Origin: Candidatus Aenigmatarchaeota archaeon
GTDB taxonomy: Archaea > Aenigmatarchaeota > Aenigmatarchaeia > QMZP01 > QMZT01
NCBI GenBank assembly: GCA_016932215.1
Contig: JAFGDH010000019.1
Coordinates: 1,817 to 65,816 of the forward strand
Direction: 5' to 3'
Length of the DNA stretch: 64,000 nucleotides
Every line of letters starts with the position of its first letter. Positions within the stretch are counted from its first letter, which is position 1. The notes under the pieces are model-generated. The model was given only the letters and a program-made list of their open reading frames with translations, did no database searches and was not told where the DNA came from. Positions 301-56,307 of this stretch are shown piece after piece. A program made the translations under genes and the position numbers.

Positions 301-969
301 ATGATAGGTTTTGGGGACATGATCACTCGTCATCTCGCGAGGGAAAAACGGACGAAAGACGTTGGACGTTATTATCCCTCTGAAATAGGCGGATGCCTGC
401 GAAAGGTCTGGTTCTCTTACAGGTTTCCCAAGGATGTTGATCCTGAAGTGATCAAGATATTCCACCTTGGTAACATGATCCACGACTTCGTGGCGGAAGT
501 GATGAAGAGCGAGAAGAACCCGGAAGTCACACTCGTCGGGGAGGAGGTACCGTTTACCATAGAGGACGGCGATTTCACGATCTCCGGCAGGATCGACGAC
601 ATAGTCATGCTGGAAGGCGAAGATGAGAAGATACTCGTGGAAGTAAAATCCACGAAGATGACCGACATTCTCGACGGACCCAAGGACGAGCACGTCATGC
701 AGCTCCAGCTGTACATGTACGCCATGAAGATATTCCGGGGTATTGTCCTGTACATAGAGAAAAACACGCTCAAAACGAAGGAATTCGAGGTCAAATATGA
801 CCAGAATTCGGTCAACGAGGTGATGAAACGCTTCCGCGCGCTCCACGCCAACCTCAAGGCAGAGACCGTCCCTCCCGCCGAGGCGAAGGAGAACCCGGAC
901 AAGAGATGGATGTGCAAGTACTGCGACTATCTGGAAGAATGCCAGAGAGCCGAGATAGATGGAAATTAG
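301..969 (+). CDS. Cas4-family (DUF83/RecB-like) PD-(D/E)XK nuclease with 4-Cys Fe-S motif, stand-alone (no CRISPR array or other cas genes in window)
   Basis: All Cas4 motifs in order: N-terminal Cys (YYPSEIGGCLRK), G..H (GNMIHDF), hD (GRIDDIVM), EVK (LVEVKST), QxxxY (QLQLYMYA), C-terminal CX2CX5C (CKYCDYLEEC). Confidence 0.75.
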   Translation: MIGFGDMITRHLAREKRTKDVGRYYPSEIGGCLRKVWFSYRFPKDVDPEVIKIFHLGNMIHDFVAEVMKSEKNPEVTLVGEEVPFTIEDGDFTISGRIDDIVMLEGEDEKILVEVKSTKMTDILDGPKDEHVMQLQLYMYAMKIFRGIVLYIEKNTLKTKEFEVKYDQNSVNEVMKRFRALHANLKAETVPPAEAKENPDKRWMCKYCDYLEECQRAEIDGN

Positions 970-1011
970 GCTATTTTTATCATTTATAAATAGTAAAATA
1001 CTATATATTAT

Positions 1012-1794
1012 ATGGGTGTTAAGTTCACATCTTGCATCAGCGAAGGCTTCGGCAATTCAGTCGCCGGAATGGATGAAGCATTTAAGTACAAAGAAGTTGA
1101 CAGAATGAGCACTGCTTACTTCCACCCGGAAGGCGCAAGCTTTGTTTTCTCACTCACTTTTCCCGAAATGAACGTTTTCAGGGTGTTTCTCATCCCGAAA
1201 GGAAAGGACCCGGTGGATTACAGTTACGAGTGGCCCGTTATCACCGGAAGAGGAATGACACAGCATGATAATTTTTTCAGGGAGTCATCCGAAAAAATGA
1301 ATAATGGTTACGAAAACCTGGGTTCCCTTGTAGAAGAAGGATGGGATAGGGTATGGATGATGATAGGTCCGGGAATGGAAAAACTTACTCCCCATATCCT
1401 GACTGTAAAAAACGAAAGGGGTAGCTCAGCACCCGTTTTGGTTTCGGAACCCGTTGATTACGGTATTTTAGGGTCATCACTGATTGAAATGAGCCAAATT
1501 GTAAATGATATGGGATACAGTGAAATGAAACTGAACGGGGTTTATCCGGATAATTCTGTTAAAACCGCAATGGAAAGAATACAGATAATGACAGATAATC
1601 CGAGAATGATACACAGCAAATTCAGATTGGGTGAGGATCCAACACCGCCTGAGTTTTCCGGGTATTCCAAGAATGTTTTCGCTGCCGTGGACTGCCAGGC
1701 AGCCGGCCTGTACACTGAAGACGATAAGAACATCAGGAAAATACTTTCCGGTTTCATGCATCCTGACCATAAAAATAATATTTTCGTGATCTGA
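1012..1794 (+). CDS. hypothetical protein, paralog 1 of a tandem pair (no recognised family)
   Basis: 260-aa ORF. Shares HPEGA(S/D)F, WP(V/I)ITGR, GPGM(E/D)(K/Q)LTPH and PVL(V/I)SEP..YG blocks with the next ORF. TATA-like tttataaata about 25 nt upstream. Confidence 0.6.
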   Translation: MGVKFTSCISEGFGNSVAGMDEAFKYKEVDRMSTAYFHPEGASFVFSLTFPEMNVFRVFLIPKGKDPVDYSYEWPVITGRGMTQHDNFFRESSEKMNNGYENLGSLVEEGWDRVWMMIGPGMEKLTPHILTVKNERGSSAPVLVSEPVDYGILGSSLIEMSQIVNDMGYSEMKLNGVYPDNSVKTAMERIQIMTDNPRMIHSKFRLGEDPTPPEFSGYSKNVFAAVDCQAAGLYTEDDKNIRKILSGFMHPDHKNNIFVI

Positions 1795-1795
1795 T

Positions 1796-2569
1796 ATGAC
1801 CGTAAAACTCAATGCTTATCTTTTCGGAGAGCAAGTTCCTGATCTAAAGGAGGCGCTCCGGTACAAGAAATTAAATTACGATAGTCATCTCCTCATCCAT
1901 CCGGAAGGCGCTGATTTCATGTTCGTGAGCAGGAACGTCGGAAGGTACAGCAATTTCCTCATATACAGCATCCCTGAAGGGATGAGTATAAAGGATTTTG
2001 ATAACCTGACGTGGCCGATAATAACCGGCAGGGATATCAATGCATACGGGAAGCATTTCGTTTGCGCTCCCCGTTTCGGGCATAAAAAGTTCCTGAAGAA
2101 TATTCTTAAAAAAGGTGGCGACAAAACATGGTTCATTGTAGGCCCTGGGATGGATCAGCTGACTCCGCATCTGGCTGAAATCAAGGAAAGCAGCGGAAAC
2201 TATGGTCCTGTTCTGATATCAGAACCCCTGAATTACGGTCTTATGGATGATTCTCTCGTCACCCTGCGGGATTACATGGTTTCCAATGAATTCACGGAGC
2301 CTTATCTCATAGACGTCGATCCGGAGGGTACGGTGGACGAGGCCAGGAGAAGGATAAGGATCATAACCGAATCCCCGAAAATCGTCCGGTGGAAAGGCAG
2401 GTTCGGGATAAGCAGGCCTCCGGAAAGGATAAGAGAACATAAAGGCCATGTCTACGCCGTGGTCGATTTCCAGGCCGCGAAAGAGCATTCAATTGACCCC
2501 CGCGGGACCGAGGAGAAGCTTAAGAAGTTCCTCCACCCCGATTACAGCGACAATTTCTTCATCTTTTAG
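1796..2569 (+). CDS. hypothetical protein, paralog 2 of the tandem pair
   Basis: 257-aa ORF starting 1 nt after the stop of paralog 1 (translational coupling). Colinear conserved blocks with 1012..1794. Confidence 0.6.
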   Translation: MTVKLNAYLFGEQVPDLKEALRYKKLNYDSHLLIHPEGADFMFVSRNVGRYSNFLIYSIPEGMSIKDFDNLTWPIITGRDINAYGKHFVCAPRFGHKKFLKNILKKGGDKTWFIVGPGMDQLTPHLAEIKESSGNYGPVLISEPLNYGLMDDSLVTLRDYMVSNEFTEPYLIDVDPEGTVDEARRRIRIITESPKIVRWKGRFGISRPPERIREHKGHVYAVVDFQAAKEHSIDPRGTEEKLKKFLHPDYSDNFFIF

Positions 2570-2610
2570 CCGTCTTTGAACTTATAAAAGTTGCTTTTAA
2601 TTGTAATCCT

Positions 2611-2859
2611 ATGAGCAGAGGAAGACTGAAATTGTACCTGGAACCTGGCTGCGATCCGGGAGACGTTCTGGGATTCTTAGGGCTGCCAAAGACCTATCCG
2701 GTCGATTTCAAGAGCGGAATCAGCGGGGACGAGCCGAGGAGCATGACCGTTCCAAGCCAGTGGAGTCCGGGCGCTTTTGACGACGCAGAAGCAATGAGGG
2801 AAAGGGCCAATAAGTTCGGAATGGTTTATTCTGATAAGACGGAAATTCTCAGGTGTTAA
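2611..2859 (+). CDS. small hypothetical protein (82 aa)
   Basis: Complete ORF, same strand, directly downstream of the paralog pair. No motif recognised. Confidence 0.35.
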   Translation: MSRGRLKLYLEPGCDPGDVLGFLGLPKTYPVDFKSGISGDEPRSMTVPSQWSPGAFDDAEAMRERANKFGMVYSDKTEILRC

Positions 2860-2892
2860 AATTATATACCGGTTCTTTACGAATAATAAAGC

Positions 2893-4038
2893 ATGGAAAG
2901 GGACAGAAAGGGACTGATGGCTCCCGACATGATAGTATTTTTTAGCTCTGCTCTGTTCTTCATGGTGATGTGGTTCCTTCCGCTGCTGTTCGTCGACATA
3001 GGGCTGAGCGGCGTCCAGATAGGAATCCTTCTTTCGGTTTACATGTTCGTCTCCCTCTTCAGCTCCTTCCCGATAGGGGTGATAAACGACCGTTTCTCCA
3101 TCCGGGAGGTCATATTCGCCGGCCTGATACTCTCCTCCCTTTTCATGTTCGGGTTTTCCGTCCTGAAAGGGTTCTGGTTTTTTATGCTCTATTACGCCAT
3201 GGGCGGCCTGGGGCACAACATGGTCAACACATCCCTGAGAAGCCTTATATACAAGCTGTCCAGGAGAAGGAGCGAGGACATGAATCTTGGGGTTTTCCAG
3301 TTTTTCATGTCTTTTGGCGCCAGCATAGGGTATATTGTCGGGGGTTTCCTTATCTTCATTCTCGACTTTGACCTGACCCTTATAATCGGATCCCTTCTCA
3401 TATTTATCCTCTCATTTTTATCCTTTCTCGTGCCGAAGGTGGACATCAGGAAGTTTTCTTTCTGGGAATACAAGCACAGCCTCCTGAAGAAATCGGTCTT
3501 CCTTCTCCTGTTTCCGGTGTTCCTTTTCGGAACCCACTGGGGTGCTGAGCAGACGTCTTACAGCCTTTTCCTGAGGAATTTCCTCGGTCTTGACATCTTC
3601 TATTCCGGTCTTTACATGGGCTTCAGCCTGATGGCAATGGCGATAGGCGGGATTTACGCAGGGAAGCACATAAACAAGACCCGATACCCGAAAAAGCTAT
3701 TCCTTCTTGGCATCCTGATGTCCGGGGTTTTCAGCATCCTTATGGCAAACCCTAACCTTTATCTCTCTTTCCTTTCGAGGTTCCTTCACGAGATCGGCGA
3801 CGGCCTGATGATGGTCAGCTATTACATAATACTTGCTGACATATTCGACAAGAAGATAATAGCCGGGGAATCCAGCATCGCCTACATGGCCCTGGTTCTC
3901 GGTGCCATTGTGGGGGCACCGATATACGGTCACATAGGATTCGTTTATGGCTACCATTTCCCCTTCATAATTTCCGGTTTCGTGAGCCTTTTCTCCCTCA
4001 TGATCATCATGGCCAGGCAGAAACTTATCAAATTCTGA
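2893..4038 (+). CDS. polytopic membrane protein, MFS-transporter-like
   Basis: 381 aa, about 12 hydrophobic segments across the whole length, typical MFS architecture. Confidence 0.5.
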   Translation: MERDRKGLMAPDMIVFFSSALFFMVMWFLPLLFVDIGLSGVQIGILLSVYMFVSLFSSFPIGVINDRFSIREVIFAGLILSSLFMFGFSVLKGFWFFMLYYAMGGLGHNMVNTSLRSLIYKLSRRRSEDMNLGVFQFFMSFGASIGYIVGGFLIFILDFDLTLIIGSLLIFILSFLSFLVPKVDIRKFSFWEYKHSLLKKSVFLLLFPVFLFGTHWGAEQTSYSLFLRNFLGLDIFYSGLYMGFSLMAMAIGGIYAGKHINKTRYPKKLFLLGILMSGVFSILMANPNLYLSFLSRFLHEIGDGLMMVSYYIILADIFDKKIIAGESSIAYMALVLGAIVGAPIYGHIGFVYGYHFPFIISGFVSLFSLMIIMARQKLIKF

Positions 4039-4109
4039 TCTTGGCTCACTCTGGAAAACCCTGTCTTTTTAAATATAATTTTGAAACTAAGATTCAAGGC
4101 GGGATTTGG

Positions 4110-4901
4110 ATGAATTTTAGACTATTTTCCATAATATTTGTTTTTCTTTTCGTGCTGCCTGTTCTTGCTCAGTCGCTGGAGCTTGCAGGTTTCGAGAGCT
4201 TTCCCGTCTTCCTTGAGGCAGGCAAGCCGAAGGTTCTGGACGCGACCGGACCCGCTTCCGTCATGCTGGAGGTTTCCGTGAAGGAGAACGTCATCGACGG
4301 CGTCGTTTCCGTCGCTTCTTACACTGAGAACCCCGTGGAATACGGCGTCGAAGGCAAGAAATCTGCGAAATTCATAGGTGTCCACGTAAGCGACGACATA
4401 TACGGCAGTCTTGAATACATCGACCTCGAGATACATTACAATGAGGATGATGTGGCCGGCGAGGGGATAGACGAGAACACGCTCAGGATATACGAGTGGA
4501 ACGTGATGGAAAAGGAATGGAGGATGGTTTCGACGGAACTGGACCTCCACAACAACATCCTCAGGACGAGGATAAAGGAACCCGGCATGCTTTCCGTTTA
4601 CGGGAAGGAATTCCGGATGATTGACGAAAAATGTTTGGAAAGATGGATCTGCTCCGACTGGGGGGAATGCATGAACGGAGTCAGGGACAGGATATGCGAG
4701 GACATAAGCGGCTGCGGTACGCAGGATGATAAGCCCGAAGAATTCGAGGACTGCGTGGTGGAGATTGTTTCGGATGACAATCAGCCCACCGGTATGATAA
4801 TTACCGAGAGAACAAACTTGTTGGTTGTTGGGGTGGTGATCTTTCTCGTCATCGTGCTCGCTGTTCTGATCTATCTTTTCATGGTGACAGTAAAAACCTG
4901 A
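4110..4901 (+). CDS. secreted / C-terminally anchored Cys-rich protein
   Basis: Signal peptide MNFRLFSIIFVFLFVLPVLAQS. Cys-rich module near the C-terminus, then a TM segment and short basic tail. Confidence 0.5.
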   Translation: MNFRLFSIIFVFLFVLPVLAQSLELAGFESFPVFLEAGKPKVLDATGPASVMLEVSVKENVIDGVVSVASYTENPVEYGVEGKKSAKFIGVHVSDDIYGSLEYIDLEIHYNEDDVAGEGIDENTLRIYEWNVMEKEWRMVSTELDLHNNILRTRIKEPGMLSVYGKEFRMIDEKCLERWICSDWGECMNGVRDRICEDISGCGTQDDKPEEFEDCVVEIVSDDNQPTGMIITERTNLLVVGVVIFLVIVLAVLIYLFMVTVKT

Positions 4902-6137: not shown

Positions 6138-6338
6138 ATGGTGAGCTGGCTGAAGAACCTGCGGGTGATGTACCATCAGAGAAGGATACAGGACCTTTCC
6201 CACGTAATAAGGGTGCTGAGGGACATGAAGCACGTGGACAACATAAAGCACATACACGACGAGGACATCCTCTTCTTCACGGGAAAGATGATGGCCCACC
6301 TGGAAAAGATACGGGAGATCCGCGGGACGAAACTATAG
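6138..6338 (+). CDS. small hypothetical protein (66 aa)
   Basis: Complete ORF in a gap between genes, charged composition. No motif. Confidence 0.3.
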   Translation: MVSWLKNLRVMYHQRRIQDLSHVIRVLRDMKHVDNIKHIHDEDILFFTGKMMAHLEKIREIRGTKL

Positions 6339-6458
6339 GGAAAGAAGCATGCTTCGCATGTTTCGTGTACTCCGGGTCGACTTTAACTGTGCCTGTGTCA
6401 AGTACCCCGGTCCGGCCTTTCCCGATCTTATTTATTAATGAGAAGCTCATAATTAACC

Positions 6459-15926: not shown

Positions 15927-16568
15927 TTATTCAAACAATTCCAGCACCTTTTTTGATATTTCTCCGGGTTTCAGTATGAAATCGTAATGCCCCGTTTCAA
16001 TCGCGTTTTCCGGTATTTTCGGATTGCTTGCGGTTTCCGGGTCCTGTATTATTACCTTCGCGCCCCTTTCCTTTGCCATTCCCAGCGCGAAAGATCCGTC
16101 ATCCCCGTTGCCGCTGAGAATAATCAGGACCATGTCCTCTCCGTAACCGCAATCCAGAAGGCTTCTTATCGAATAATTGAATTCCTGGCGCATATCCGCT
16201 GGTTCGGTGTTTACGTATTTTCTTGAAAAAACAATATTTCCGTTACTTTTCAACGGAACATATATGTTGGTTTCCCCCCTTGACAGTTCATGAACCGTAA
16301 CGTCATGACAATTATAAAACAGTTTTTTGCCCTCCAAAACCGTACCCTCTCTTGCATGATTTTTAGTCAGATTTTTTGCGAATCTCCTGCCAAGGGCGCT
16401 GCTGTCGTGACTGTGAGGTATGTGCTCAAGAAAATACACGGACCCCTTACTTTTCAGCCTTTTAAGATATCCGTCCACTGATTCGTAAAATGCCCTGTGG
16501 CCTCCTCTTGAACCCATGAAGAATGCCAGTCTGGGTCTTTCGTATTCCATAAAAATAAATGCCGGCAA
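15927..16568 (-). CDS. stand-alone CheB-type protein-glutamate methylesterase catalytic domain
   Basis: GSRGG (Ser), GNGDDGSFALGMAKERGAKVIIQDPETA and PKIPENAIETGHYDFIL match the CheB catalytic-domain blocks. No receiver domain and no che genes in window. Confidence 0.6.
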   Translation of the reverse strand: MPAFIFMEYERPRLAFFMGSRGGHRAFYESVDGYLKRLKSKGSVYFLEHIPHSHDSSALGRRFAKNLTKNHAREGTVLEGKKLFYNCHDVTVHELSRGETNIYVPLKSNGNIVFSRKYVNTEPADMRQEFNYSIRSLLDCGYGEDMVLIILSGNGDDGSFALGMAKERGAKVIIQDPETASNPKIPENAIETGHYDFILKPGEISKKVLELFE

Positions 16569-35951: not shown

Positions 35952-36040
35952 GTAGGTCCCGACAATGCTCCAGTCCCCAGTCCTCTCCGCTATCTCGTTG
36001 ACTTCCCTTTGGCGGAAAATAACCTTTATATACCAATAAA

Positions 36041-36058
36041 TTAACTACTTAATAGTGG
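36041..36058. promoter_or_regulatory. shared motif TTAACTACTTAATAGTGG (site 2 of 3), flanked by TATA-like boxes
   Basis: Seen directly. Lies between the divergent XRE operon and the HExxH gene at 36103. ctttatatacc is upstream and tttatatataat downstream. Confidence 0.5.
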
Positions 36059-36102
36059 TTTATATATAATAGGTCTATAGTGGGGTTTGGGAGTCAGTTG
36101 AA

Positions 36103-36975
36103 ATGAGAAGATATGGTACCGGGGACATGACCGAAGAGGTATACAGGAACGAAATAAGCAGATACGGGAACGTGGGTGAATTTATAAAAAACAGGCCCGA
36201 TCTTGCTCCCGCTTTCGTGAAGTGTTTCGAAGACTGGATTAATTCAGATGTTTCCCTCGTTATAGAAGAGAGGTCAGGGAAAAAGGCGGGTCCGGCTGAG
36301 ATATTTATTCATGTTGGAAACAGGGCTTATACTGACGGGAAAAAAGAAATTTACATACCGGTTTCATATACCTTTCCTTTGATGACGGGGGCTTCCGTCC
36401 ATGAAAGGTTGCATTTCTATCCGGAAGTAAATGAGAGCGCTTTATCGTATCATGAAGAGAAAATAAGGGAATCAAAAACTATTCTTGAAAATGGCGGAAA
36501 GATAGGAAGGGAGTATATTTTGCATTTTTTTAAAACCCTTACAGGAAAGCATTTCGATTCATTAGTTGGTCATATCATATCCGAACTGATAGCTTACACT
36601 GAAACAGGGCCCGTTTTGAATGAGGCAAAAGTTCCGTTCGGGATAGATCCGAAGCCCTATTTTGATATGTGGGAAAAAAATCTGAAAAATGAAAAAAATA
36701 CTTTTGAAAGATATGAGGAAAGGGAACTTTTAATCACACCTGAAAGCTTTTATAATGAACTGATAAAATGGTACCAGTATTATTCTTTTGCTCGTCGCCC
36801 GAACGACGTCATGAAAGGGAATATCATTCCTTTAGTCTCGACACAATTTTCCCATTACGCTAAAATCGTGAACGGTTTTGACGAGATGCCCCCGTCCGAA
36901 TTATGGTCGCTGGAACCCGAGAAATTCGTTGAAGAATACAACAGGAAGGTAAGGAAACTGAAGTCGGGGAAATAG
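36103..36975 (+). CDS. HExxH-motif protein (putative zinc metallopeptidase), 290 aa
   Basis: GASVHERLHFYPE. Divergent from the XRE regulator. Confidence 0.45.
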   Translation: MRRYGTGDMTEEVYRNEISRYGNVGEFIKNRPDLAPAFVKCFEDWINSDVSLVIEERSGKKAGPAEIFIHVGNRAYTDGKKEIYIPVSYTFPLMTGASVHERLHFYPEVNESALSYHEEKIRESKTILENGGKIGREYILHFFKTLTGKHFDSLVGHIISELIAYTETGPVLNEAKVPFGIDPKPYFDMWEKNLKNEKNTFERYEERELLITPESFYNELIKWYQYYSFARRPNDVMKGNIIPLVSTQFSHYAKIVNGFDEMPPSELWSLEPEKFVEEYNRKVRKLKSGK

Positions 36976-37001
36976 ATTGTTTTTCCTATCCTTCCCCCGA
37001 C

Positions 37002-38051
37002 CTATAACCCCCAGTCCTCTCCGCTATCTTCGGATAAAAATTCCCGCCAGTGTCTTTTTTTGATGAAGTCGGACATCTCCTTCCTTCTCTCCGCTTCTTC
37101 CCGGTATTCCTTTATGCGGTCTCTTAAGGTGGGCATTATAAATTCTATCTCGCGCCCATAGTGATTGAACCTGTCAATGTCCGCGAAAGCCAGATTTTCA
37201 GGGTACTCGTTTGCATATCCGCGCATCATGGAAATCAGGTGATTTGCATGCCTGATTTCAGGTGCATATATTATTTTATCTGGCAGCTCCTGCTCTAAAA
37301 GAGAGATTTCCCTTTCTGCATTTTCAATACTCGTCTCGTATTTGCTTATGGTAATGAACATCCTGTTCATCATTACCGGGGTTTTCCACCACATTATGTC
37401 AAGGTATCTCTTCCAGTCGTCTATTTTTGAATCTTCCCCTGATAATCTGGGGCATGTCCTTATGTTGTATCCGGTTATGGGGCTTCCGTTTTCCCACCAG
37501 AACAGATCCGGATGCTCTTTTATCACCACTGAAAACACTTCTTCCATTTCCGGGATGAGTATCTCTTCCTTTGTCTTCAGGTTCAGGCCGGGGAAATCCT
37601 TCCTGTAATCGTAGGAATGGATAAGGACCAGATTTTTATCCGGGTATTGCTCTGTGAACATGGCAAGCTTCATGAGCGCAACAGTACTGATTGATTTGTT
37701 TCTCCATGAACCCTTGACTTCGATGTAATCTCCGGTACTTGGTATGAAAAAGTCAGGGGTATAATTCGTTATTCCCGAATTGGTTATCTCTTTTTTCATG
37801 GTCACCGTTAACGGGAAATACTCTTTCTCGTAAACATAATCGAACCCTGCGACTTTGAGACATCTCGCAATGTTTGCCTCCTGCATGGACCTTACGCTGT
37901 GACCCAGGTCATACCTGTATCCCGCCAGCGGGGTCCCCGTGTTTCCTGACAAAAAAGCACCGTCAACCTGGTTAGGAGCACTGCCTTCAGCCAGCTCAAT
38001 GTCTCCGAAACCGGGATGTCTCATATATCCCTCGATGAAAGGTTTGCTCAT
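37002..38051 (-). CDS. PD-(D/E)XK nuclease-fold domain protein with uncharacterised C-terminal domain, 349 aa
   Basis: E(ANIA)...YTPDFFIPSTGDYIEVKG fits the E / PD / D-x-(E)VK arrangement of restriction-endonuclease-like nucleases. Last gene of a 4-gene minus-strand operon. Confidence 0.5.
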   Translation of the reverse strand: MSKPFIEGYMRHPGFGDIELAEGSAPNQVDGAFLSGNTGTPLAGYRYDLGHSVRSMQEANIARCLKVAGFDYVYEKEYFPLTVTMKKEITNSGITNYTPDFFIPSTGDYIEVKGSWRNKSISTVALMKLAMFTEQYPDKNLVLIHSYDYRKDFPGLNLKTKEEILIPEMEEVFSVVIKEHPDLFWWENGSPITGYNIRTCPRLSGEDSKIDDWKRYLDIMWWKTPVMMNRMFITISKYETSIENAEREISLLEQELPDKIIYAPEIRHANHLISMMRGYANEYPENLAFADIDRFNHYGREIEFIMPTLRDRIKEYREEAERRKEMSDFIKKRHWREFLSEDSGEDWGL

Positions 38052-38155
38052 GTTTTATAAATAGACATAAATTTTTTAACTGGAGAATTCATTCATTCCC
38101 GACATATAAGCCCCCACCTTCTTAGCTATCTCATTGACCTCTTTTTAGTGTAGAT

Positions 38156-39019
38156 TTACAATAAGAGCTTTTCAATATTTTCCTTAACGACATCGATTTT
38201 TGCGAAATCCTGGATAAAATTATTCCCAACCTGATAGTTAAATGTTATTCTATGACAATTTTTTATTTTCCTGGCTAATTCATGGATCGGGTATGAAAAA
38301 AACAATCTTCCCGCGGGATTTTTTTTCATTTCATTCATCACCGCATCTTTAGATGTATCATAACCAAGCCTGGAAAGAACGGTATCTTCAAGCCTGAGCG
38401 CAATTGCTTCGTCAAAAATACCCATTGTTCCGAGTAATGCTAACATATCCTCAGCAAAATCCCTCCTTTCACGGGTAGTTTTCTTAAATTTCAATTTCAG
38501 GTTTCCCCTCTTATTAACCAGTTTTGCAGGAAAATCATCTCCATTTATAATGTTGCTCAATATTCCCTCTGCGACAACTAATGGGTGATTCTGAAGGGCA
38601 AACCCGATAAAATGATTATATTCATGAATATATGGTGCAATAAAACTGGGGTAATTCGGGTTTCTTGATTTTTCCTTGACAAATCCCTTTTCCGGAAACG
38701 AGAATAACGGATATGATGTTATGGCATTTTGGTAATTTATTCTCCCGTCAGATGAAATTTCAAGGCTTCTGTCATAAGTGGTGGAAGCAGTGAACATGGC
38801 ATCATCAAAACCCCCAAAAAATATGCCGGTACCTATTTTATTTAGTTCCCTGACAGTTTTTTCATCCGTGAAGCTGGACGGCCCAAGTAATCTCTTAGAT
38901 TCGCTATCCAGAAGATGAATATCATCCATTAAAATATCAGAATAGATTTGCATCAATTGATTTCTATATTTTTCCAGTTCTTCTTTTAAGCCCGTGCTGT
39001 TTCCAAAGTATTCTAGCAT
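38156..39019 (-). CDS. HExxH-motif protein (putative metallopeptidase), 287 aa
   Basis: APYIHEYNHFIGF. 20-nt gap to the upstream gene. Confidence 0.45.
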   Translation of the reverse strand: MLEYFGNSTGLKEELEKYRNQLMQIYSDILMDDIHLLDSESKRLLGPSSFTDEKTVRELNKIGTGIFFGGFDDAMFTASTTYDRSLEISSDGRINYQNAITSYPLFSFPEKGFVKEKSRNPNYPSFIAPYIHEYNHFIGFALQNHPLVVAEGILSNIINGDDFPAKLVNKRGNLKLKFKKTTRERRDFAEDMLALLGTMGIFDEAIALRLEDTVLSRLGYDTSKDAVMNEMKKNPAGRLFFSYPIHELARKIKNCHRITFNYQVGNNFIQDFAKIDVVKENIEKLLL

Positions 39020-39038
39020 AATGCATAACCTCTTTAGC

Positions 39039-40826
39039 CTAAACGTCTTCCCAGACGAAGTCCTGCCATCTTCTGTCGATTATCTTTTGAAGGTGGAATT
39101 CCTTGAGCATTTTATAAACGTCATTTCTTGTCAAATAAAATACGCCGGGGTTTTTCTCCATACTATTCAGTTCACTGATTGTTTTCTCATCGCCGAATTT
39201 TTCGATGTATTCCCTCCCTGAAATTAATTTATCCATTTTTCTATGTGTCACTGGATCGAAACCCATTTTCATGGACTGACTTATTTCGTCAGAAAAAAAC
39301 AAGCCACCCTCATAACTCATCCCTATCATATTCAGCCCAATCCCGTACCGATTTTCTATCAGCTCAGCTTCCTCTCTCAGACGCAATTGATTAATCACCT
39401 TATCTATCTTGGACGGGTCTTCTGCCCCGACAATCAGAACTCGGCGCCCGTCGGGAAATATGCGAGGCTCGGTCCCCGGTCTTTGGAAATTCGAGGTATC
39501 TTTTACGACTTTCGTATAAAACTCTCTTGCTTTTGCAAGATACCGGAAAACTCTTTCCGGAATGGCTTTGTGTATCCTGTAATATACTTCCAGAAGGTTG
39601 GCTGAGGTTCCGCTCGAATACCTGAACTGTGAATCCATTCCCCGGTCCAAAAAGCCCTTCCTCACGGCCTCCCTGAATTTCTGCACGTCTTCATTTTCAA
39701 AATTACGCCAGAAACCTATCCCCGTGCCCTTTTCAAGATATTTCATGAAATCGTCAATATCCTCGTCGAAACATCTTAGTATTGTGGGCAATATTCTTGT
39801 TGAAATGGCATGCCTCCAGAACCTGTTGGATGTTACATGACCGGACGGCAATACTATGTTATCGTCTTCTGAAATCCTGTAATCGAAATCCTCAACGAAC
39901 GAACATATCATGCTTTCTAACATTTCATCGTATTCCATGACATCCTTGTAGCTCTTTAGCAGTTCCAGCATGTTTTTCATTTCCCCCGACACGATACCTT
40001 CCCCCAAAAATTCGTTCGTCTTTTTAACGTGTTCCATCTGATGCCTTTTCAGTATCTTTTGTATTTCCGTGACTCTTGCGGTTGCATGGGTTTCGTTTCT
40101 GTCGCTCATGAAATGCTGAAACACTATCGCATATTCCGGGCTCAGTGATATGTGCGGTTCCTCTTTTGGCTGGTTTTCGAAGGTGCGGGTGGTTCCCCTG
40201 CAGTCATTAAGATAACGCATTATTCCGCGCCTGATATTCACATAGAGCTGGTAATTGAAATACATGCTTTTCGGGTCGTCTTCATATTCCCTGAAGTCAT
40301 TGAACTCCGGGTTTATTTCTCTTCCGAGAACATTGAATATTTCCCAGTCCCTGGGAGCGAGGGTTTCTCCTCTCAGCCAGTTTTCAACAGTGCTTACGTG
40401 CCTCTTTTTACCGTTCCTTTCAAGCGCATTAACTACCCATTCGGCCATCATCTCATAGTCTTCTTTAGCGAAATCATCAGTTTCATAGAGCGCCCTAGAA
40501 TCAATATCAGAATCGTCTATCACACCTTTTTCCGATAATCCCTTCAGAAGCAGGGTCCTTAATCTCGGAATGAAATCTCCCCTTGAATTCTGTTCGTGTA
40601 TCATCTCTTTTGAAAAGTGATATCTGGGGCTTTTGTCAAGATGTGGCTCAACATCCTCAAGATCCGTCTTTGCATAAGGCTTCTGGAATAAGACCATATC
40701 CCCGACATTGACATCGGCTACTTTCTTCTTAAGATAACTTGAAGGGGATACCTGAACATACACGTCTCCGGTTGGATCCAGAAATGAATCTCCCATTGTT
40801 GTTGATATCAAATATTTAGCTACCAT
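39039..40826 (-). CDS. large hypothetical protein, 595 aa
   Basis: Long ORF, no Walker or DDE motifs. 67-nt gap to the upstream rSAM gene. Confidence 0.55.
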   Translation of the reverse strand: MVAKYLISTTMGDSFLDPTGDVYVQVSPSSYLKKKVADVNVGDMVLFQKPYAKTDLEDVEPHLDKSPRYHFSKEMIHEQNSRGDFIPRLRTLLLKGLSEKGVIDDSDIDSRALYETDDFAKEDYEMMAEWVVNALERNGKKRHVSTVENWLRGETLAPRDWEIFNVLGREINPEFNDFREYEDDPKSMYFNYQLYVNIRRGIMRYLNDCRGTTRTFENQPKEEPHISLSPEYAIVFQHFMSDRNETHATARVTEIQKILKRHQMEHVKKTNEFLGEGIVSGEMKNMLELLKSYKDVMEYDEMLESMICSFVEDFDYRISEDDNIVLPSGHVTSNRFWRHAISTRILPTILRCFDEDIDDFMKYLEKGTGIGFWRNFENEDVQKFREAVRKGFLDRGMDSQFRYSSGTSANLLEVYYRIHKAIPERVFRYLAKAREFYTKVVKDTSNFQRPGTEPRIFPDGRRVLIVGAEDPSKIDKVINQLRLREEAELIENRYGIGLNMIGMSYEGGLFFSDEISQSMKMGFDPVTHRKMDKLISGREYIEKFGDEKTISELNSMEKNPGVFYLTRNDVYKMLKEFHLQKIIDRRWQDFVWEDV

Positions 40827-40892
40827 AATATAGTAAAAACAGTTAATTTTTTATATTAATTTATTAATGTTTCAGGCATATCAACCAAAAGA

Positions 40893-42038
40893 TTACCCAT
40901 CTGCAGACTTGTAAGCTCCCGTCCTCTTGGCTATCTCATTAACTTCCTTAGGATGGGAGAACAATGCACATGGGGTCCCCTCGTTTTCCAGAAGATGTTC
41001 GCTTTCGCGGATTTCCCTGAAGAGCTTGCTGGAGAAGGCTTCCCTGATTGTTGATTTCAGGAGGTTGTGGGTGGCGATGTTGGAGACCGGGCAGGGTGTC
41101 AGATCGCCGGTCGGGGTGACGTGAGCGAAGCCCTTGCCTGCCGAGACGCATCCTCCAAAGTATTCTTCGTCCCCTGGCGAGTGAATGAGGTAGATCTTCT
41201 TGGTTTCCCTGATCCTGAGGACGAAATCCCTGAACTCTTTCCTTTCCTCACTGGTGAGCATGAGCCTGTGATCATTGCCCCTCTGGGTGACCGGGATGTA
41301 TTCGATGAGGGCAGCGATCTTTATTCCCTTCGCTATGAGGGAATCGATGAGCTTTTCGTCCATCCAGTGGCGGAAGTTGTTCTTGGTTATTGTTGCGGAT
41401 ATTCCTGTTGGAATGCCTGCCTTTATTAGGGCCTGGATGGTCTTTTGTGCCTTTTCGTGGACACCATCGCCTCGTCTCTGGTCGGTCATTTCCTTCGTTC
41501 CTTCCATGCTGACCAGTACACACGTGTTTTTGCAGGATTTGAGTGTATTGATCTCTTTTTCCTGGATTGCTGTGCCATTGGTTAGTATTATGAACAGTCG
41601 GTCGGAGAAGTCTTTGCATATATGGGAGAGGTTGTCTGTAAGGAATGGCTCCCCTCCTGCTATTACGAAGCCAAAAACCCCTGCTTCCGATGACTTTTTG
41701 ATTATTTCTTTCCACTTGCTGCGGGATAGTTGTTTTTTCTCCTTTTTGGAGACGGTTCCTGCCGCCGAGGCATAGCAGCCCGCGCAGGCTAGGTTGCACA
41801 TGGAGGTTATGCTAAGAATCAGGAACGGGGGTATCTTGATCCCTTCCTTCTTTAGCCTGTCCCTGGTTTCGCTGGCCTTTTTGCAGGACTTCATCAATCC
41901 GAGGAAGGAACGGAAGTGGCCTGGATGAGCGACTGCCCATTTGAAGAAGACTTTCGTGAGGTTAGGATCGAGAGTGTTAAGGTATTTTCGGAAGGAGATG
42001 ACCCTTTTCAGAAGGCAGAAGTCTGAGATTTTCGCCAT
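40893..42038 (-). CDS. radical SAM protein with C-terminal SPASM/twitch-like Cys cluster
   Basis: CNLACAGC (CX3CX2C) at about residue 80, G-rich VIAGGEPF, and C-terminal GGC...C.....C cluster. Confidence 0.75.
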   Translation of the reverse strand: MAKISDFCLLKRVISFRKYLNTLDPNLTKVFFKWAVAHPGHFRSFLGLMKSCKKASETRDRLKKEGIKIPPFLILSITSMCNLACAGCYASAAGTVSKKEKKQLSRSKWKEIIKKSSEAGVFGFVIAGGEPFLTDNLSHICKDFSDRLFIILTNGTAIQEKEINTLKSCKNTCVLVSMEGTKEMTDQRRGDGVHEKAQKTIQALIKAGIPTGISATITKNNFRHWMDEKLIDSLIAKGIKIAALIEYIPVTQRGNDHRLMLTSEERKEFRDFVLRIRETKKIYLIHSPGDEEYFGGCVSAGKGFAHVTPTGDLTPCPVSNIATHNLLKSTIREAFSSKLFREIRESEHLLENEGTPCALFSHPKEVNEIAKRTGAYKSADG

Positions 42039-42347: not shown

Positions 42348-43493
42348 ATGTCTGATAATTCCGATCTCGTTCGCCTGCAGGGTTTCGACCGGCAGATAGG
42401 GGAAATAGAGATGTGCGTGGGCGATCTTTTTACCCATCTGGACAGCACGGTTTCCGGCGAAAAGAAGGGGAATCCGCAGTATTCTTACGACAGGCCCGGT
42501 TACATAAGCAACTACGTGCACAGGCTCGTCGACATGGAAGGGCAGTTCGAAAGCGAAAGTCCCCTCGGCAAGATACTGGAAGGCAGGAGAAAGGCATCCA
42601 TACAGAAGCTCGTTGCGATATCGAGGATAGGGACGTCCGATTTCACCGGAGCCGCGGAGAGATACTACCGGAACGCTGTCCCTAGCAAGGAAGACGTGAT
42701 GACCGCCGTCGAGGTCATCGGAAGGACGGAATCGTCGGTCGACTGTGATACATTATGCGTTAACGCGGAAGGCCTCGGGGAGAGGATGACGGAGTATCTG
42801 GCCAGGAAGGGCGTTTCCGGGAAAAGGCTGTGGAAGGTCACGGTAGAGTCCCCCGGCCCCATGGAAAGGATGCCCGCACTTTCCCTCAACAAAACAACGA
42901 AGACCGTTAGGATAAGGGACGATTACGTGAAGCCGGAAAGGAAGGCGGAGACGTCCGTCCTCCACGAGGGCTCCCACATAATGCAGTGGGAGAACGGCCT
43001 GAGGCAGCCGCTTCCCAACACCTTTTACCACGGGACGGACGGAAGGTCCGTCGCTACGCAGGAGGGCCTGGCGAGCATAATAACGGAAAAGGAGGGATTC
43101 CCCGGCAACATGAGGAAATACGCCGCCTACGTCATAGCGGTCGATTCCGCTCTCAAAGGAGCGACATACATGGACATATTCCAGTCCATGCAGAAGGATT
43201 ACAGGTTCTCCGAGAAGGACGCGAAGGAGATCGCCCACAGGGTGAAAAGGGGGCTTTCCGACACCTCCCAGCCAGGGGGCTTCGTCAAGGATGCGGTCTA
43301 CATGCTCGGAAGGTGGAGGATACATGATCACGTCGGAAGGCACGGCGAAAGCAACGAACAGGAAACTTTGAAGGATTTCTATATCGGAAATGTCGCCGTG
43401 GAGGACATGGATTCCGCCTATAAATGGCTCCTGAGGGACGGGATCATCAGGCCGGCCGGGTATCTGCCGGACTGCCTGGAAAAGAAGGACTGA
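42348..43493 (+). CDS. DUF1704 / QEGLA-motif (MATCAP-like) putative zinc metallocarboxypeptidase
   Basis: HEGSH (HExxH) followed by the family-defining QEGLA motif (SVATQEGLASIITE). Confidence 0.65.
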   Translation: MSDNSDLVRLQGFDRQIGEIEMCVGDLFTHLDSTVSGEKKGNPQYSYDRPGYISNYVHRLVDMEGQFESESPLGKILEGRRKASIQKLVAISRIGTSDFTGAAERYYRNAVPSKEDVMTAVEVIGRTESSVDCDTLCVNAEGLGERMTEYLARKGVSGKRLWKVTVESPGPMERMPALSLNKTTKTVRIRDDYVKPERKAETSVLHEGSHIMQWENGLRQPLPNTFYHGTDGRSVATQEGLASIITEKEGFPGNMRKYAAYVIAVDSALKGATYMDIFQSMQKDYRFSEKDAKEIAHRVKRGLSDTSQPGGFVKDAVYMLGRWRIHDHVGRHGESNEQETLKDFYIGNVAVEDMDSAYKWLLRDGIIRPAGYLPDCLEKKD

Positions 43494-49850: not shown

Positions 49851-51953
49851 TTATTTAACGAACATCACGAACTTGACCGCCAGTATGATTATTATCACCA
49901 GCACGATCAGCGCAAGCACGAGAACCTTCACGGAGTCCGCGCTCAGCTCCCCCGCGAATATCTGCGCGCTGGGAAGAGTTATGTTTATCGTCATCTCCGG
50001 CTCTCCCTGGCCCGTCACGTTCTCCGGCCATACAGACTCCACTGTTATGTAGAACGTGTAGCTGTCGCTCGCGTAGTTCGATGCTCCCTTAACGGTCACC
50101 GTGTACGTACCTGAAGTCACGAAGTAGTCCGGTGAGATGTACACGTAGAACTCCTTCATGTCCTCCGGGTCCATTACGGCATCGCTGGAGCTCAGGTAGG
50201 TCCATTCAGGCCCTTCCAGAGTCACCTCGTAGGCGTCCTTCCTCTCGCCCGTGTTCGTGAGCTTGAGGCGGACGGCCTTGCCGTAACCCACGTCGGAATC
50301 GACTTCCATGACCTCGCTGTCGCGAAGGTCGACCGCGAAACACTCCGCATTCGGCCTTACCGCAACCTTCATCACGTTTTCCTCGAAAACGTGCGCAGAA
50401 ACCAGCCTGAACGGTATCTCGTATGTCTGGTCCTGCGGGAAGAATGCGTTAAGCACCTTCTGGAACGTTATTTCCTCGCCAGGTTCGAGCGTGAATTCCT
50501 CCATGACCTCCTTCACTATCTGAAGCGAATAGGAGTCCCGGAACTCACCAGTGTTCCTGACGGTTATCTCGTAGAGGATCTCGTCCCCCACGCAGACGTT
50601 CCTTTCCATGGGATTTATCCGGAAATCCACCGAATAGCAGTTCTTTGCAAAAAGATCCACCGTGGTCCTGTCCTGCACCTCGCCGCTCTTTGCCTGGACC
50701 GTTAATTCCCTTTCCTCTCCCGGCTGCAGAGCGGACGTGTCGACCGTCAATTTCACCCTTTTTACCTCTCCCGGCGATACGGCCACTACGCCTTCCTCGA
50801 ATGTCCCGAGGTCGCTGGAGAGCTCATACATGTCGTCGACTGTGCCCGTGTTCTTCACGACCACCTCGTATTCTGCTTCCATTCCGTGGCAGAGAGCCTG
50901 GTCAGTCGGGTAAACCACGACTGCGACGTCCCTGCACTCTATTCCCTCGATGGAGGCTTGTACGTTCTTCTTTATTGCCGGAAGGCTCTGGGAACTTATC
51001 GTTACCTCGAAGTTCTTCCTTCCGAGCACGTTCGGCTTTACAAAAAGATCTATAATTCCCTCTTCGTTCGGCTCCAGGGATATGCTCTCTCTCTCCGGAG
51101 TGACGAAATCAGGGACGAAAATGTTGTATGTGTCTCCTTCCAGACCCACGTTGTCGATTATAAGCTTGTACTTGGTCGTCTTGCCCAAGCATACGACACC
51201 GTCAGAAGGCTTCACGTCGGCGTTGAAGTCGTAGCAGTTGATTATCCCCAGAGGAATGCTCTGGGAGTCCTTGGCGTACGAATCCTTCGATACGACATCA
51301 ACCAGTACCGCGAAATTCCCCGTGAGATCCGGCGGAAGTATGGAGAACTCCATCGCTTCGGTGTCCTGGGAGTCTATCCTCTTTTCGCCCTCGAAAAGAA
51401 CGTCCCCCCATGATGTCCGGATGGAAACGTCGAAATTCTCCTTTATTTTACCGTAGTTCGTGAGAGCCACGGTGAAATCAACATCGCTTCCCCTGCAGGA
51501 CTGTATCCTGTCCTCTGTCTCGATCTGCACGTAATGGCACGGCAGGACCTCGACGTCGAACGTCTTTATTGTGGACTGTCCCGTGGTGGAAACCTTTACC
51601 TTTATCTCATATATACCGGGCTTGGTATCACACGAAGGTGTGACATATATCTGCATGGGCTCGCTCGACTCGCCCGGGTCAAGCACCTTCTTGGCGTTAA
51701 CTGTGGTAACGTCAAGCGCAGAATGCATCTCAGGATGCCCTGTCCAGTCGGCAGGCATCTCGAGCTCGATGACATAACTGTGAGGAATGTCATCCAGATT
51801 CATTACATCCACCTGTACTTCTGTTACAGGCGTGCACGGACAAACAGAAACGAATTCCGTGGAAAGACTAACGTCCATATTGTAGGTCTGCGCGCTCACT
51901 ACCGGAGCCAGCATGACCGCCAATACAAGAGCAAACAATATTTTTTTGAACAT
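49851..51953 (-). CDS. cell-surface protein with CARDB/DUF11-like repeats, C-terminal TM anchor
   Basis: Signal MFKKILFALVLAVMLAPVVSAQT. Repeated V.(V/N)TG...D.Y motifs. C-terminal TM plus KFVMFVK. Confidence 0.7.
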   Translation of the reverse strand: MFKKILFALVLAVMLAPVVSAQTYNMDVSLSTEFVSVCPCTPVTEVQVDVMNLDDIPHSYVIELEMPADWTGHPEMHSALDVTTVNAKKVLDPGESSEPMQIYVTPSCDTKPGIYEIKVKVSTTGQSTIKTFDVEVLPCHYVQIETEDRIQSCRGSDVDFTVALTNYGKIKENFDVSIRTSWGDVLFEGEKRIDSQDTEAMEFSILPPDLTGNFAVLVDVVSKDSYAKDSQSIPLGIINCYDFNADVKPSDGVVCLGKTTKYKLIIDNVGLEGDTYNIFVPDFVTPERESISLEPNEEGIIDLFVKPNVLGRKNFEVTISSQSLPAIKKNVQASIEGIECRDVAVVVYPTDQALCHGMEAEYEVVVKNTGTVDDMYELSSDLGTFEEGVVAVSPGEVKRVKLTVDTSALQPGEERELTVQAKSGEVQDRTTVDLFAKNCYSVDFRINPMERNVCVGDEILYEITVRNTGEFRDSYSLQIVKEVMEEFTLEPGEEITFQKVLNAFFPQDQTYEIPFRLVSAHVFEENVMKVAVRPNAECFAVDLRDSEVMEVDSDVGYGKAVRLKLTNTGERKDAYEVTLEGPEWTYLSSSDAVMDPEDMKEFYVYISPDYFVTSGTYTVTVKGASNYASDSYTFYITVESVWPENVTGQGEPEMTINITLPSAQIFAGELSADSVKVLVLALIVLVIIIILAVKFVMFVK

Positions 51954-52085
51954 ACGTACCCTCCATTAATGCTTTTAAATTGGGAATAAGTTTTTTATAT
52001 TTATCGCTTTTCAGTGGTGATTTTCCCATCATTTATTTATATTTGATTTTTTTCTCCTTTATTTTCTAGTAGTGACGCGTAGTCA

Positions 52086-55000
52086 CTATCTATATATCTC
52101 GTTTATTCCAGGCTCCCTTAGGTGCCTGAACCCGTAGTGCAAGACTACGAGGAATATGATTGTAACCACGAATGCCCCCACGAGTATCATGGATGCGGGC
52201 GATCCTATGAACATGCCCGACATGCCGCCGTATCCGTAGGTGTCCATCTCGCCCTCAGGCACGACGTACAAGTGAAGCATCTTGCTGTACCTGAAGCTGC
52301 CTGAGCTGACCGTGACGTTCATGGTGTACTTTCCGAGGTCTTTCGGGACCACGTAAGCGTAAACGACCTTCCTCCCCTTTACCGTGGTGTTGTCCGGGTA
52401 GTTTACCCAGTTGTCCGGCACACCTTCGATATGAAGGTCGAACACCCTCTCGTCTGGTGAATTTATCAGTATCGAAAATGACTTCCCCGTCTGCCATGGT
52501 ATGTCGAGGAATGTCTGGAGTATCTCGACGTACGTCCCATCCGTCGGGCCGGGTGTCGGTCCGGGGGGCTGGGGTGGCTGAGGCGGTTCTGTATAAGGAT
52601 AAACGGTTATCTGGCCGTACTTGTTGGCTGTCTTCCCGCATCGTATGAACGCTTCCGCCCTTATGTTATGGCTTCCGGCAGGAAGAGTGAAGTATATCCT
52701 TCCGGTCTTGGAATTGCCTGTCGAGATGAAGAAGCTTTCCCTCTTCTCGAAGGAGTTGCCGGAATATATGCTCAGGTCAACGGTTCCGGATACGCTTCCG
52801 CTGTTCCTTATAGTGTAGTCCACCCATGCGCTGCTGCCCACGTATACCGATGAGGGGTAGCTGAACTGGGTGAATTCTATGTTACAAGTGCTCGGAGGCG
52901 AGCCGTATCCTATGAAGACGCTGTCCGACGCGCTGTCGCTGTTGTCCTCGTGGTCGTATACCGTTACCTCGCACCTGACGTTGTCCCCGTCGTCCGTGTA
53001 CGAGGACGAAAGGTCGTCCGTCAGCGAAGCCGAGTATCCTGAAATGTACCTGGTCTCCGTTCGCTCGAGCATCCCTTCCACGAACCACCTGAACACGACC
53101 CTTCTGAGGTCTCCGTCATCGTCTTCAACCCTTACCCTGCATTCGAGGGTGTCGTATTCGTCCGGGTCGTCCGGGGTTATCCCGATGCTGTCTACAAAAG
53201 GATCATCATCGTGGCTTCCGGTCCCTACCTCTACCCTTACGGTATCGCTCCAGTCGCTGACCCTTCCGTCGTCGTCCCTTACTTTAAGCCTTGCGTAGTA
53301 GACGCCGTCGTCGTCATACGAGTGGCGGACGTAATCGTTGTCTATCCATCCGGAAGTTTCGCCATCGTCAAAATCAAAATAATATTCCTCCACAGTGCCG
53401 TCGGGATCCCACGAGGCGTCCCCGTCGAACCTGACGTTCTCGTCAACGTCCGGGTAGCTGTCGTCGACGTCCAGCTCTGCCCTGGGTGTCTGGTCGTCTT
53501 CCTCTTCCCCGACAGTGACCGATTCGGAGTACTTCATGTCGCTCTGCTGGTCCGTGTCGTACACTGTCACCCTGCACTGTACCCTGTCGCCGTCATACGT
53601 GTATCCGTCGTCGAGTATGTCCGTCGCCGTGTCGTATCCGCCGTTCACCTCCTTCGTGCTGGTCCTGGAAAGAAGGCCGTCTATGAACCAGTCGAAGATA
53701 ACATAATCAAGATTATCATCCATGTCCGAGAAAGAACCCGAACATGTCAAATCTTGTTGGGTGTTGGGGTGTCTTGGGGTGATCTCCACAGCTACAGAAA
53801 TAGGTGGAGCATTAGTTCCTGAGGAAACCATCACAGAATCGAAATCGCTGTGATGGTTCCCGTCGGAATCATAAACCGTTACCTGGCATCGTACGTTCTG
53901 CCCGTTGCTCGTGTAGGACGAGTCGAGCGTGTCGGCCGCGAAGTCCATGGTGTTCACCACGTTCTTGTCCACGGACTTCCTTATCACGCCGTTAACGTAC
54001 CATTCGAAGGTAACATAATCAAGATTACCGTCAACGTCCTGAACCTGCGCCGTGCAGGTAAGGGAATCTGTACTTCTCGGGCTTGCAGGTGTTATGCCGA
54101 CAGACAAGACCTGAGGCAATTCGCTTCCGTCAGGTCCTGCCGTGCCGACAGTCGTTGAAACATAATCAAACGCGTTTTCGTTGTCGATGTCATATACCCA
54201 TACTTCGCACTTCACCACGTCACCATCACTGGTGTACGCCTGGCCGAGGTCGTCGTACTGCGTCGAGGTCGAACCGGATATGTACCTCGTGGTCGAACGG
54301 ACCGAAACGTCGTTAACGAACCACTTGAAGGTTACCCTGTTCAGCCCGCCGTTCGGATCTCTCACGTCTGCGGTGCATCTTATCGTCTGGTTGTCGAGAG
54401 GATTGAACGGCGTGAGCGTGATGGAATCTATCCTCGGAAGCTCGTTGCTCGGATCGGAAATGTCAACTGCGATCATCCCCTGCGTGTTGCCGCCGTCGGA
54501 CGTTATGCTGACTATAGCCGAGCTGTGGCTTGTCAGGGACTGCGTGTCCACCGTAGCCGTAACGTAGCTTATACCTCCCTCTGCGGTCGTTCCGCCTGAA
54601 GGCAAAATTGTTAACCATCCCCTGTCGTCGGAGATGCTCCACGTAAGGCTTCCCGTCCCTGTATTTCGGATGCTGAAGGTCCACTGCCTCACCGCTCCCT
54701 GCGGCAACGCTCCGAAATCATGGTTGGGGTCGGCCTGGAGAACGGGCTCGTCTTCTGTGACCTCGCCCACGTTGATCTCCATGAAACCGGAATCCGTTCC
54801 GGCATTGTCCTGCGTGGCTATCGATATCGTTCCCGTGTACCTTCCGTTCATGTTTGATGTATCAACTACGGATACGGTCACGTAGTCGGGCTCGCCCGTG
54901 CTAGTCCCCGCGGACGGGGAGACCTGAAGCCAGTTCGGGCTCGAGCTGACATACCAGGAAAGCGTTCCCGCACCGGTGTTCTGGACGTAGAACTGGTACT

Positions 55001-56306: not shown

Positions 56307-56307
56307 A

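Follow-up and report, generated by a model that had tools for sequence, protein, structure and literature searches.

Near the 5′ end of a 64,000-nucleotide stretch of the Candidatus Aenigmatarchaeota archaeon contig JAFGDH010000019.1 (hereafter the window), a gene coding for a Cas4-family nuclease is followed on the same strand by a tandem pair of paralogous genes, named here A and B. These genes probably represent two independent units lying side by side, namely a stand-alone nuclease of the solo-Cas4 kind and a pair of cofactor-dependent enzymes which has its own promoter and occupies a slot of variable content. The original prediction had proposed a fixed partnership between Cas4 and the duplicated gene, possibly marking a distinct DNA-processing or defence module, and such a fixed module is not supported by the comparison of genomic contexts. 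The features involved, with open reading frames (ORFs) taken from the ORF list of the window and protein lengths in amino acids (aa), are as follows.

301-969, + strand: Cas4-like ORF, 222 aa
970-1011, + strand: Cas4-A spacer, 42 nucleotides (nt), putative promoter of the A/B unit (from sequence, GC content, palindrome and identity to the relative L001)
1012-1794, + strand: paralogue A, 260 aa
1796-2569, + strand: paralogue B, 257 aa
2611-2859, + strand: 82-aa ORF, an orphan and putative gene (also called as a gene on a Logan contig)
2893-4038, + strand: transporter of the major facilitator superfamily (MFS), right-hand border of the variable slot (MFS_1, 4e-41)

Seven distinct contexts of Cas4 orthologues, the window included, were compared, and an A-like gene stands beside Cas4 in only two of them. 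These are the window and one close relative lineage (L001, L012, L013 and L015; Cas4 84% identical), in which the gene order is Cas4, a 93-aa ORF and an orthologue of A with 55% identity. In L016 and L017, whose Cas4 is 56% identical, the order of Cas4, MFS transporter (49%), secreted protein (28%) and a 343-aa protein (40%) is kept, and the slot between Cas4 and MFS is filled by genes of a minimal nucleotidyltransferase (MNT, NTP_transf_2) and a HEPN protein in place of A/B, at the following positions.

L016, 5832-6906: MNT and HEPN pair in the Cas4...MFS slot
L017, 4428-5502: MNT and HEPN pair in the Cas4...MFS slot

A Phage_integrase gene and many small ORFs are present upstream of Cas4 in L016 and L017, possibly forming an integrated element. 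The remaining contexts of Cas4 contain an ABC transporter and DUF4430 (L018/L019), or purA, DUF72, rhomboid and ScpA/B genes (L020/L021 and L022).

Likewise, none of the four distant homologues of A/B has a Cas4 neighbour. P0005 follows Endo_dU among purine-biosynthesis genes, while P0008 follows DUF763 and lies near a DHH phosphoesterase and phosphoenolpyruvate synthase. P0010 belongs to a polysaccharide gene cluster that looks bacterial and includes glycosyltransferases and Wzm/Wzt, and P0009, preceded by two membrane paralogues, lies between genes for an Hjc-type resolvase and an Sm protein. The two paralogous membrane proteins directly upstream of P0009 (L003 1688-3012; 221 and 218 aa, both starting with MSLDDKV, separated by gaps of 2-5 nt) constitute a second tandem duplication adjoining a member of the A/B family.

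The spacer between Cas4 and A provides a further line of evidence. It has a GC content of 12%, has a run of five T residues (975-979) just after the Cas4 stop codon, and carries the palindrome TTTTATCATTTATAAATAGTAAAA at 975-998 together with the TATA-like sequence TTTATAAATA at 984-993, located 19-28 nt before the ATG of A. Both the palindrome and the TATA-like box fall within the 40 nt preceding A, which are identical at 38 of 40 positions to L001 7521-7561, whereas coding DNA is only about 68% identical between the window and L001. In L001, this conserved element lies 320 nt further from Cas4, behind the inserted 93-aa ORF. Since the element has been kept despite this displacement, it belongs to A and not to Cas4. 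Its conservation suggests that it acts as the promoter or operator of the A/B unit, a role assigned on the basis of the general position of TATA boxes in archaea.

The original prediction considered all three genes as probably co-transcribed, with gaps of 43 nt and 1 nt. The second gap stands (junction TGATATG), and A and B are probably co-transcribed, because B starts 1 nt after the stop codon of A. The first gap is 42 nt, and co-transcription of Cas4 with A is unlikely. Overall, A/B is judged probably independent of Cas4 because five of the seven contexts lack A/B, the distant homologues lack Cas4, and the upstream element travels with A.

The history of the pair can be read from the close relative. 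A and B share 33% identity over their full length (E-value 5e-52; 33-35% across comparisons), and A is closer to its L001 orthologue (55% identical) than to B, which dates the duplication to before the two lineages separated. In L001, a deletion of 1.5 kb, corresponding to window positions 1844-3345, has eliminated the 82-aa ORF together with the greater part of B and the 5′ portion of the MFS gene. At L001 8379-8431, the first 16 codons of B directly follow the stop codon of A and then run out of frame into codon ~152 of the MFS gene, half of which is left, starting at GTG. The same deletion junction occurs in an independent metagenome contig, L014. The 16 retained codons of B show seven synonymous and no nonsynonymous differences from the window (1796-1843), which indicates that purifying selection acted on B during most of the time since the lineages diverged, and that its loss from the L001 lineage is recent. 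Thus, the tandem A/B pair is ancestral and selectively maintained.

The slot between Cas4 and MFS is dynamic, with the insertion or deletion of the 93-aa ORF, the loss of B, and the MNT-HEPN pair in a relative. A and B have GC contents at third codon positions (GC3) of 0.475 and 0.585, respectively, compared with 0.65-0.77 for Cas4, MFS and housekeeping genes. Protein identity between the window and L001 is 55% for A, compared with 84% for Cas4, 86% for an AIM24-family protein, 77% for a secreted protein and 75% for MFS. Candidate flanking repeats and att sites at the slot did not exceed chance level, and no integrase was found in the window. The A/B unit would be pictured as an ancient tandem duplicate with its own conserved, TATA-containing promoter, placed in a slot of varying content between Cas4 and MFS.

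The Cas4 ORF is a PD-(D/E)XK nuclease with four cysteines for a predicted [4Fe-4S] cluster, an assignment made from sequence. It matches NCBIfam TIGR00372 (cas4) with 66.8 bits (cutoff 65), Pfam Cas_Cas4 (PF01930) at 4e-10 and 40.4 bits (cutoff 22.7), PDDEXK_1 at 1e-11, PADLOC Cas4 models at 1.6e-20 and phrog_1706 at 1e-38. It also matches the solved Cas4 SSO0001 (PDB 4ic1) at 3e-8, with the catalytic motifs aligned. In an alignment with 19 DPANN orthologues (20 sequences), the residues C32, C205, C208, C214, D99, E114, K116, Q134 and Y138 do not vary, which confirms the complete motif set originally described. The cysteines are arranged as one N-terminal residue and a C-terminal C-x2-C-x5-C, as expected for a [4Fe-4S] cluster.

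The stand-alone nature of this gene was also borne out. Pfam scans of 51 window ORFs, which took in every non-overlapped ORF of at least 280 aa, revealed no Cas1 or other cas family, Cas2-size small ORFs being outside these scans. No CRISPR-like repeat family, tandem repeat of the CRISPR kind or Rfam match was found in the window. The 582 nt located 5′ of the window, available on the Logan contig L002, contain a conserved 58-aa ORF and one non-cas gene, with no cas gene among them. Similarly, no cas gene lies within 6.5 kb upstream of Cas4 in L001. A CRISPR-associated Cas4 of an adaptation module would be expected beside cas1/cas2 and an array; no Cas1, other cas family or array turned up in the ORFs and sequence scanned, which are part of a contig of 81.6 kb. 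The non-cas gene just 5′ of the window (L002 1-609, partial) contains an I-I-D-L-G-C-G motif and looks like a class I methyltransferase, with no Pfam match; hhalign detected no similarity between it and the A/B family.

A homologue search identified at least 341 Cas4 homologues at E-values of 1e-20 or lower, and the best 120 of these share 47-84% identity along almost their entire length. Orthologues are about 50-56% identical across phyla, with source names of Aenigm-, Pace-, Nano- and Micrarchaeota, while IMG/VR contained only relatives of 23% identity. The gene is chromosomal, lies outside CRISPR-cas loci and mobile elements, and has orthologues across DPANN phyla, as is characteristic of solo-Cas4 in the sense of Hudaiberdiev 2017 (PMC5704561). 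Its GC3 of 0.695 is typical of core genes. Hence, it is an ordinary stand-alone solo-Cas4, common to most DPANN archaea and of a well-described kind. A solo-Cas4 of M. mazei was demonstrated to be an Fe-S, metal-dependent DNA nuclease (PMC12501428). The protein encoded at 301-969 is probably the vertically inherited core solo-Cas4 of its lineage, a predicted metal-dependent DNA nuclease with an Fe-S cluster of four cysteines, which would most likely act in general DNA end-processing or repair, or play an uncharacterised defence role, without CRISPR.

The A/B proteins make up an orphan family that evolves fast and is extremely rare. When 1.84 billion cluster representatives were searched with a profile, the only members recovered were A and B themselves and four distant proteins of comparable length (E-values from 6e-9 to 6e-5). 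A close homologue found by word search (P0002) brings the family to seven members among about 15 billion proteins, and all six members looked up are singleton clusters. Three long repeat proteins (P0004, P0006 and P0007) were ruled out as members, as their multi-stretch matches proved spurious. A and B have no match in Pfam, NCBIfam, PHROGs or PADLOC (none in PADLOC at an E-value of 1 or lower, the same being true of the 82-aa ORF), and Pfam searches with all seven members at E-values up to 10 gave nothing usable. No A/B protein was found in phage, plasmid and IMG/VR collections, and no literature was found on the protein accessions of the family. The earlier description of two paralogous proteins of about 260 aa, lacking known relatives and followed by an 82-aa ORF, is therefore accurate, and the profile and structure searches suggested as a check returned no housekeeping family.

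The seven-sequence alignment contains the invariant residues G41, T78-G79-R80, W115, G119, P127, P147, Y150, R189 and D227, with E or D always at position 146, and B keeps all of the family-invariant residues. An AlphaFold2 model of medium confidence, built from seven sequences, reached a mean predicted local distance difference test score (pLDDT) of 73 and a predicted template modelling score (pTM) of 0.77, whereas a three-sequence model (pLDDT 36) was unusable. The former comprises a beta-rich N-terminal domain (residues 1-60) and an alpha/beta domain in which beta1 (115-118) leads into the G119-P-G loop, a helix (125-136), beta2 (142-144), the sequence E146-P-x-D-Y150 and another helix (150-166). 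The modelled beta-alpha-beta unit falls on the pattern of strand, GPG, helix, strand and acidic residue seen in the alignment. Rossmann folds that bind S-adenosylmethionine (SAM) or dinucleotides are usually recognised by such a glycine-rich loop behind beta1, together with an acidic residue ending beta2. A Rossmann-like, cofactor-binding enzyme is therefore the furthest defensible assignment of A/B on this model.

Among such enzymes, a methyltransferase is a lead and not a result. A weak lead comes from the motif W-x-E-V-G-P-G-L-x-E-L-x-P of A/B, which resembles motif I of KsgA/Erm proteins (E-I-G-P-G-L-G/A-A-L-T). In the model, G119-P-G and E/D146 are placed where motif I and the acidic end of beta2 would be expected, a signature which also fits NAD(P)-binding Rossmann folds. 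The highest-probability Foldseek match in BFVD is a methyltransferase domain (probability 0.72, E-value 0.06), and one family member matches Methyltransf_28 at an E-value of 0.15. The top Foldseek matches in the PDB, medium-chain dehydrogenase/reductase (MDR) family reductases and orotidine 5′-monophosphate (OMP) decarboxylase, were rejected as meaningless, with template modelling (TM) scores below 0.3. Alignment of the family by hhalign with methyltransferases from the loci gave no signal, and neither did negative controls. A and B could be cofactor-dependent modifying enzymes, SAM-dependent methyltransferases being the single most likely kind, and may form a heterodimer acting on a substrate unrelated to Cas4.

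Several observations weigh against the reading of an independent nuclease beside an enzyme pair, either in its enzymatic or in its independent part. No match at an E-value of 0.001 or lower was obtained with Foldseek against the PDB and BFVD, no methyltransferase occurs among the top 50 PDB matches, and neither the family profile nor single members matched any PDB sequence; as a result, no significant sequence or structure match backs any assignment of fold to A/B. The C-terminal third of the model has a pLDDT of only about 50. A comparison by hhalign with a PDB-verified KsgA/Erm mini-profile covered 24 columns (motif I only) with a probability of 8%, and is circular, KsgA having been chosen after the motif was seen. 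If D227 were motif IV, the stretch behind it would be too short for a canonical class I methyltransferase.

With respect to independence, three of the four distant homologues have a gene for a DNA nuclease or nuclease-like protein nearby. Endo_dU is directly upstream in L004 (637-1200), DUF763 is directly upstream with DHH nearby in L005-L007, and the Hjc-type resolvase (L003 526-927) lies about 2 kb from the family member. This proximity may be due to chance in gene-dense small genomes, and the categories were picked after the fact. Together with the adjacency to Cas4 kept in two lineages, it leaves a link of the A/B family to DNA metabolism as a residual possibility.

Three other explanations of the locus can be weighed against this background. 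The A/B pair could, independently of Cas4, be accessory genes carried in a variable hotspot and serving as a defence, toxin-antitoxin-like or other conflict-related pair. The MNT and HEPN genes in the slot of L016/L017, the indels between close relatives, the atypical GC3 and fast evolution of A/B, and the patchy, extremely sparse family, with one member in a bacterial-looking polysaccharide gene cluster, are consistent with such cargo. However, the family has no match in PADLOC, PHROGs or the phage, plasmid and IMG/VR collections, neither flanking repeats nor an integrase were found in the window, and distant homologues occur singly, with housekeeping genes around them. Moreover, typical toxin-antitoxin pairs do not consist of two paralogues of the same size, as A and B do, and the remnant of B bears the mark of long-term purifying selection, though that fits any functional gene. 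This explanation is considered unlikely. That A/B are not cofactor-binding enzymes at all, the Rossmann appearance being an artefact of a shallow seven-sequence model, is somewhat less probable still; the proteins would then have a novel fold and a structural, regulatory or binding role. The lack of a significant Foldseek match, the failed three-sequence model, the low confidence of the C-terminal third and the absence of any hidden Markov model match to a Rossmann family argue for a novel fold, but the hydrophobic strand, G-P-G, helix, second hydrophobic strand and acidic residue are visible directly in the alignment, they match the beta-alpha-beta unit of the model, and its pTM of 0.77 is reasonably good.

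Cas4, A and B, with or without the 82-aa ORF, could also form a single DNA-processing or defence module, for example one resembling restriction-modification if A/B methylate DNA. The genes share a strand with short gaps, the Cas4-A adjacency persists in the related lineage, and A/B carry a weak methyltransferase-like motif I, with nuclease genes near three distant homologues. In addition, solo-Cas4 adjoins restriction-modification genes in some DPANN genomes (PMC5704561), and Cas4-family nucleases can partner with other immune proteins, such as the ACE1 nuclease associated with prokaryotic Argonaute (PMC12094033). Nevertheless, five further Cas4 contexts lack A/B and no distant A/B homologue accompanies Cas4. 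In L001, an insertion of 320 nt with another ORF splits Cas4 from A while the 40 nt of A remain nearly unchanged, and B was deleted with Cas4 and A retained. The absence of a PADLOC match for A/B, and a GC3 and evolutionary rate differing from those of Cas4, point in the same direction, so a single module appears very improbable. The most far-reaching idea, that A/B are a new family of SAM- or nucleotide-dependent enzymes modifying nucleic acids in cooperation with neighbouring DNA nucleases, in a DPANN-specific repair system or a restriction-modification-like system of self/non-self discrimination, is a long shot. If it were true, the long-enigmatic solo-Cas4 would gain a functional partner. 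The side-by-side placement of a solo-Cas4 and an A/B enzyme pair with its own promoter thus stays the preferred interpretation.

The surroundings of the locus are those of an ordinary chromosome. The window codes for leucyl-tRNA synthetase, myo-inositol-1-phosphate synthase, UPF0182, inositol monophosphatase, peroxiredoxin, transporters and large surface proteins, and exact protein sequences are on record under the locus tags JW754_02570 and JW754_02575 (Candidatus Aenigmarchaeota archaeon, DPANN). On the left side of Cas4, one further small gene is found.

42-218, - strand: 58-aa ORF divergent from Cas4 (from the ORF list, with an orthologue in relatives)

Its orthologue in L001 lies at 6262-6441 on the minus strand, and a tblastn match was obtained in L015 (45% identity, 4e-11); no family match is on record. 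The 82-aa ORF, which starts 41 nt after B and sits within the segment deleted in L001, is preceded by the TATA-like sequence CTTATAAAAG and has no match in Pfam, NCBIfam, PHROG or PADLOC. Its identity with the 93-aa ORF of L001 was ruled out, there being no similarity between them. A TATA-like box is also present 5′ of the MFS gene, which is followed by a secreted or membrane protein (4041-4901) and then by an AIM24-family gene on the opposite strand.

Elsewhere in the window, a stretch of low GC content (0.40-0.43) at 36000-41000, possibly a foreign island, contains several ORFs without a Pfam match: 290 aa at 36103-36975 (+), 287 aa at 38156-39019 (-) and 595 aa at 39039-40826 (-), the last with a GC3 of 0.49. 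Between them, a 349-aa ORF (37002-38051, -) has a weak match to Phage_endo_I, and a radical-SAM gene (40893-42038, -) adjoins these ORFs. A homologue of MATCAP/DUF1704-type metallopeptidases (42348-43493), a CheB-methylesterase-like protein (15927-16568) lacking obvious chemotaxis genes in its vicinity, and a cluster of very large surface proteins with PKD, BACON and Ig domains (49851-58152; 700, 1406 and 614 aa) were also observed.

A conserved partner would have made the role of solo-Cas4 in DPANN archaea that lack CRISPR testable, and the locus provides none, the neighbouring pair being lineage-specific cargo of a variable slot. A/B, as an orphan family whose duplication is ancient and has been retained and whose putative promoter region is strongly conserved, and the Cas4...MFS slot of Aenigmarchaeota, in which two-gene units (A/B and MNT-HEPN) are exchanged, offer modest leads for the study of accessory genes in DPANN archaea.

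A/B resemble class I SAM-dependent methyltransferases (KsgA/Dim1/Erm and MidA/Methyltransf_28) in the motif W-x-E/x-h-G-P-G-x-x-E-L-x-P following a predicted strand, and in a second strand about 25 residues further on that ends in an acidic residue (E/D-P-L-D-Y). Unlike these enzymes, they lack a motif IV of the N/D-P-P-Y type, have too few residues after D227 for a seven-strand fold, and carry in addition a beta domain at the N-terminus and an invariant T-G-R motif, neither of which has an equivalent there. With the MNT-HEPN toxin-antitoxin pair, A/B share the position in the Cas4...MFS slot of related Aenigmarchaeota and the organisation as a two-gene, same-strand unit, but no sequence similarity; moreover, MNT and HEPN are unrelated folds, whereas A and B are paralogues. 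The arrangement of a Cas4-family gene beside same-strand, non-cas genes recalls solo-Cas4 adjoining restriction-modification genes (PMC5704561) and ACE1 (PMC12094033). In those systems, the linkage is kept across many genomes, whereas that of Cas4 with A/B is limited to two close lineages among those examined. The closest correspondence is that of the window Cas4 with the solo-Cas4 of archaea, especially DPANN (COG1468/PF01930; PMC5704561), from which nothing essential separates it. It has the same length, RecB motifs, QhxxY motif and four Fe-S cysteines, and, like the known DPANN representatives, it is located outside a CRISPR-cas locus in a host with a small genome and has highly conserved orthologues, which fits vertical inheritance.

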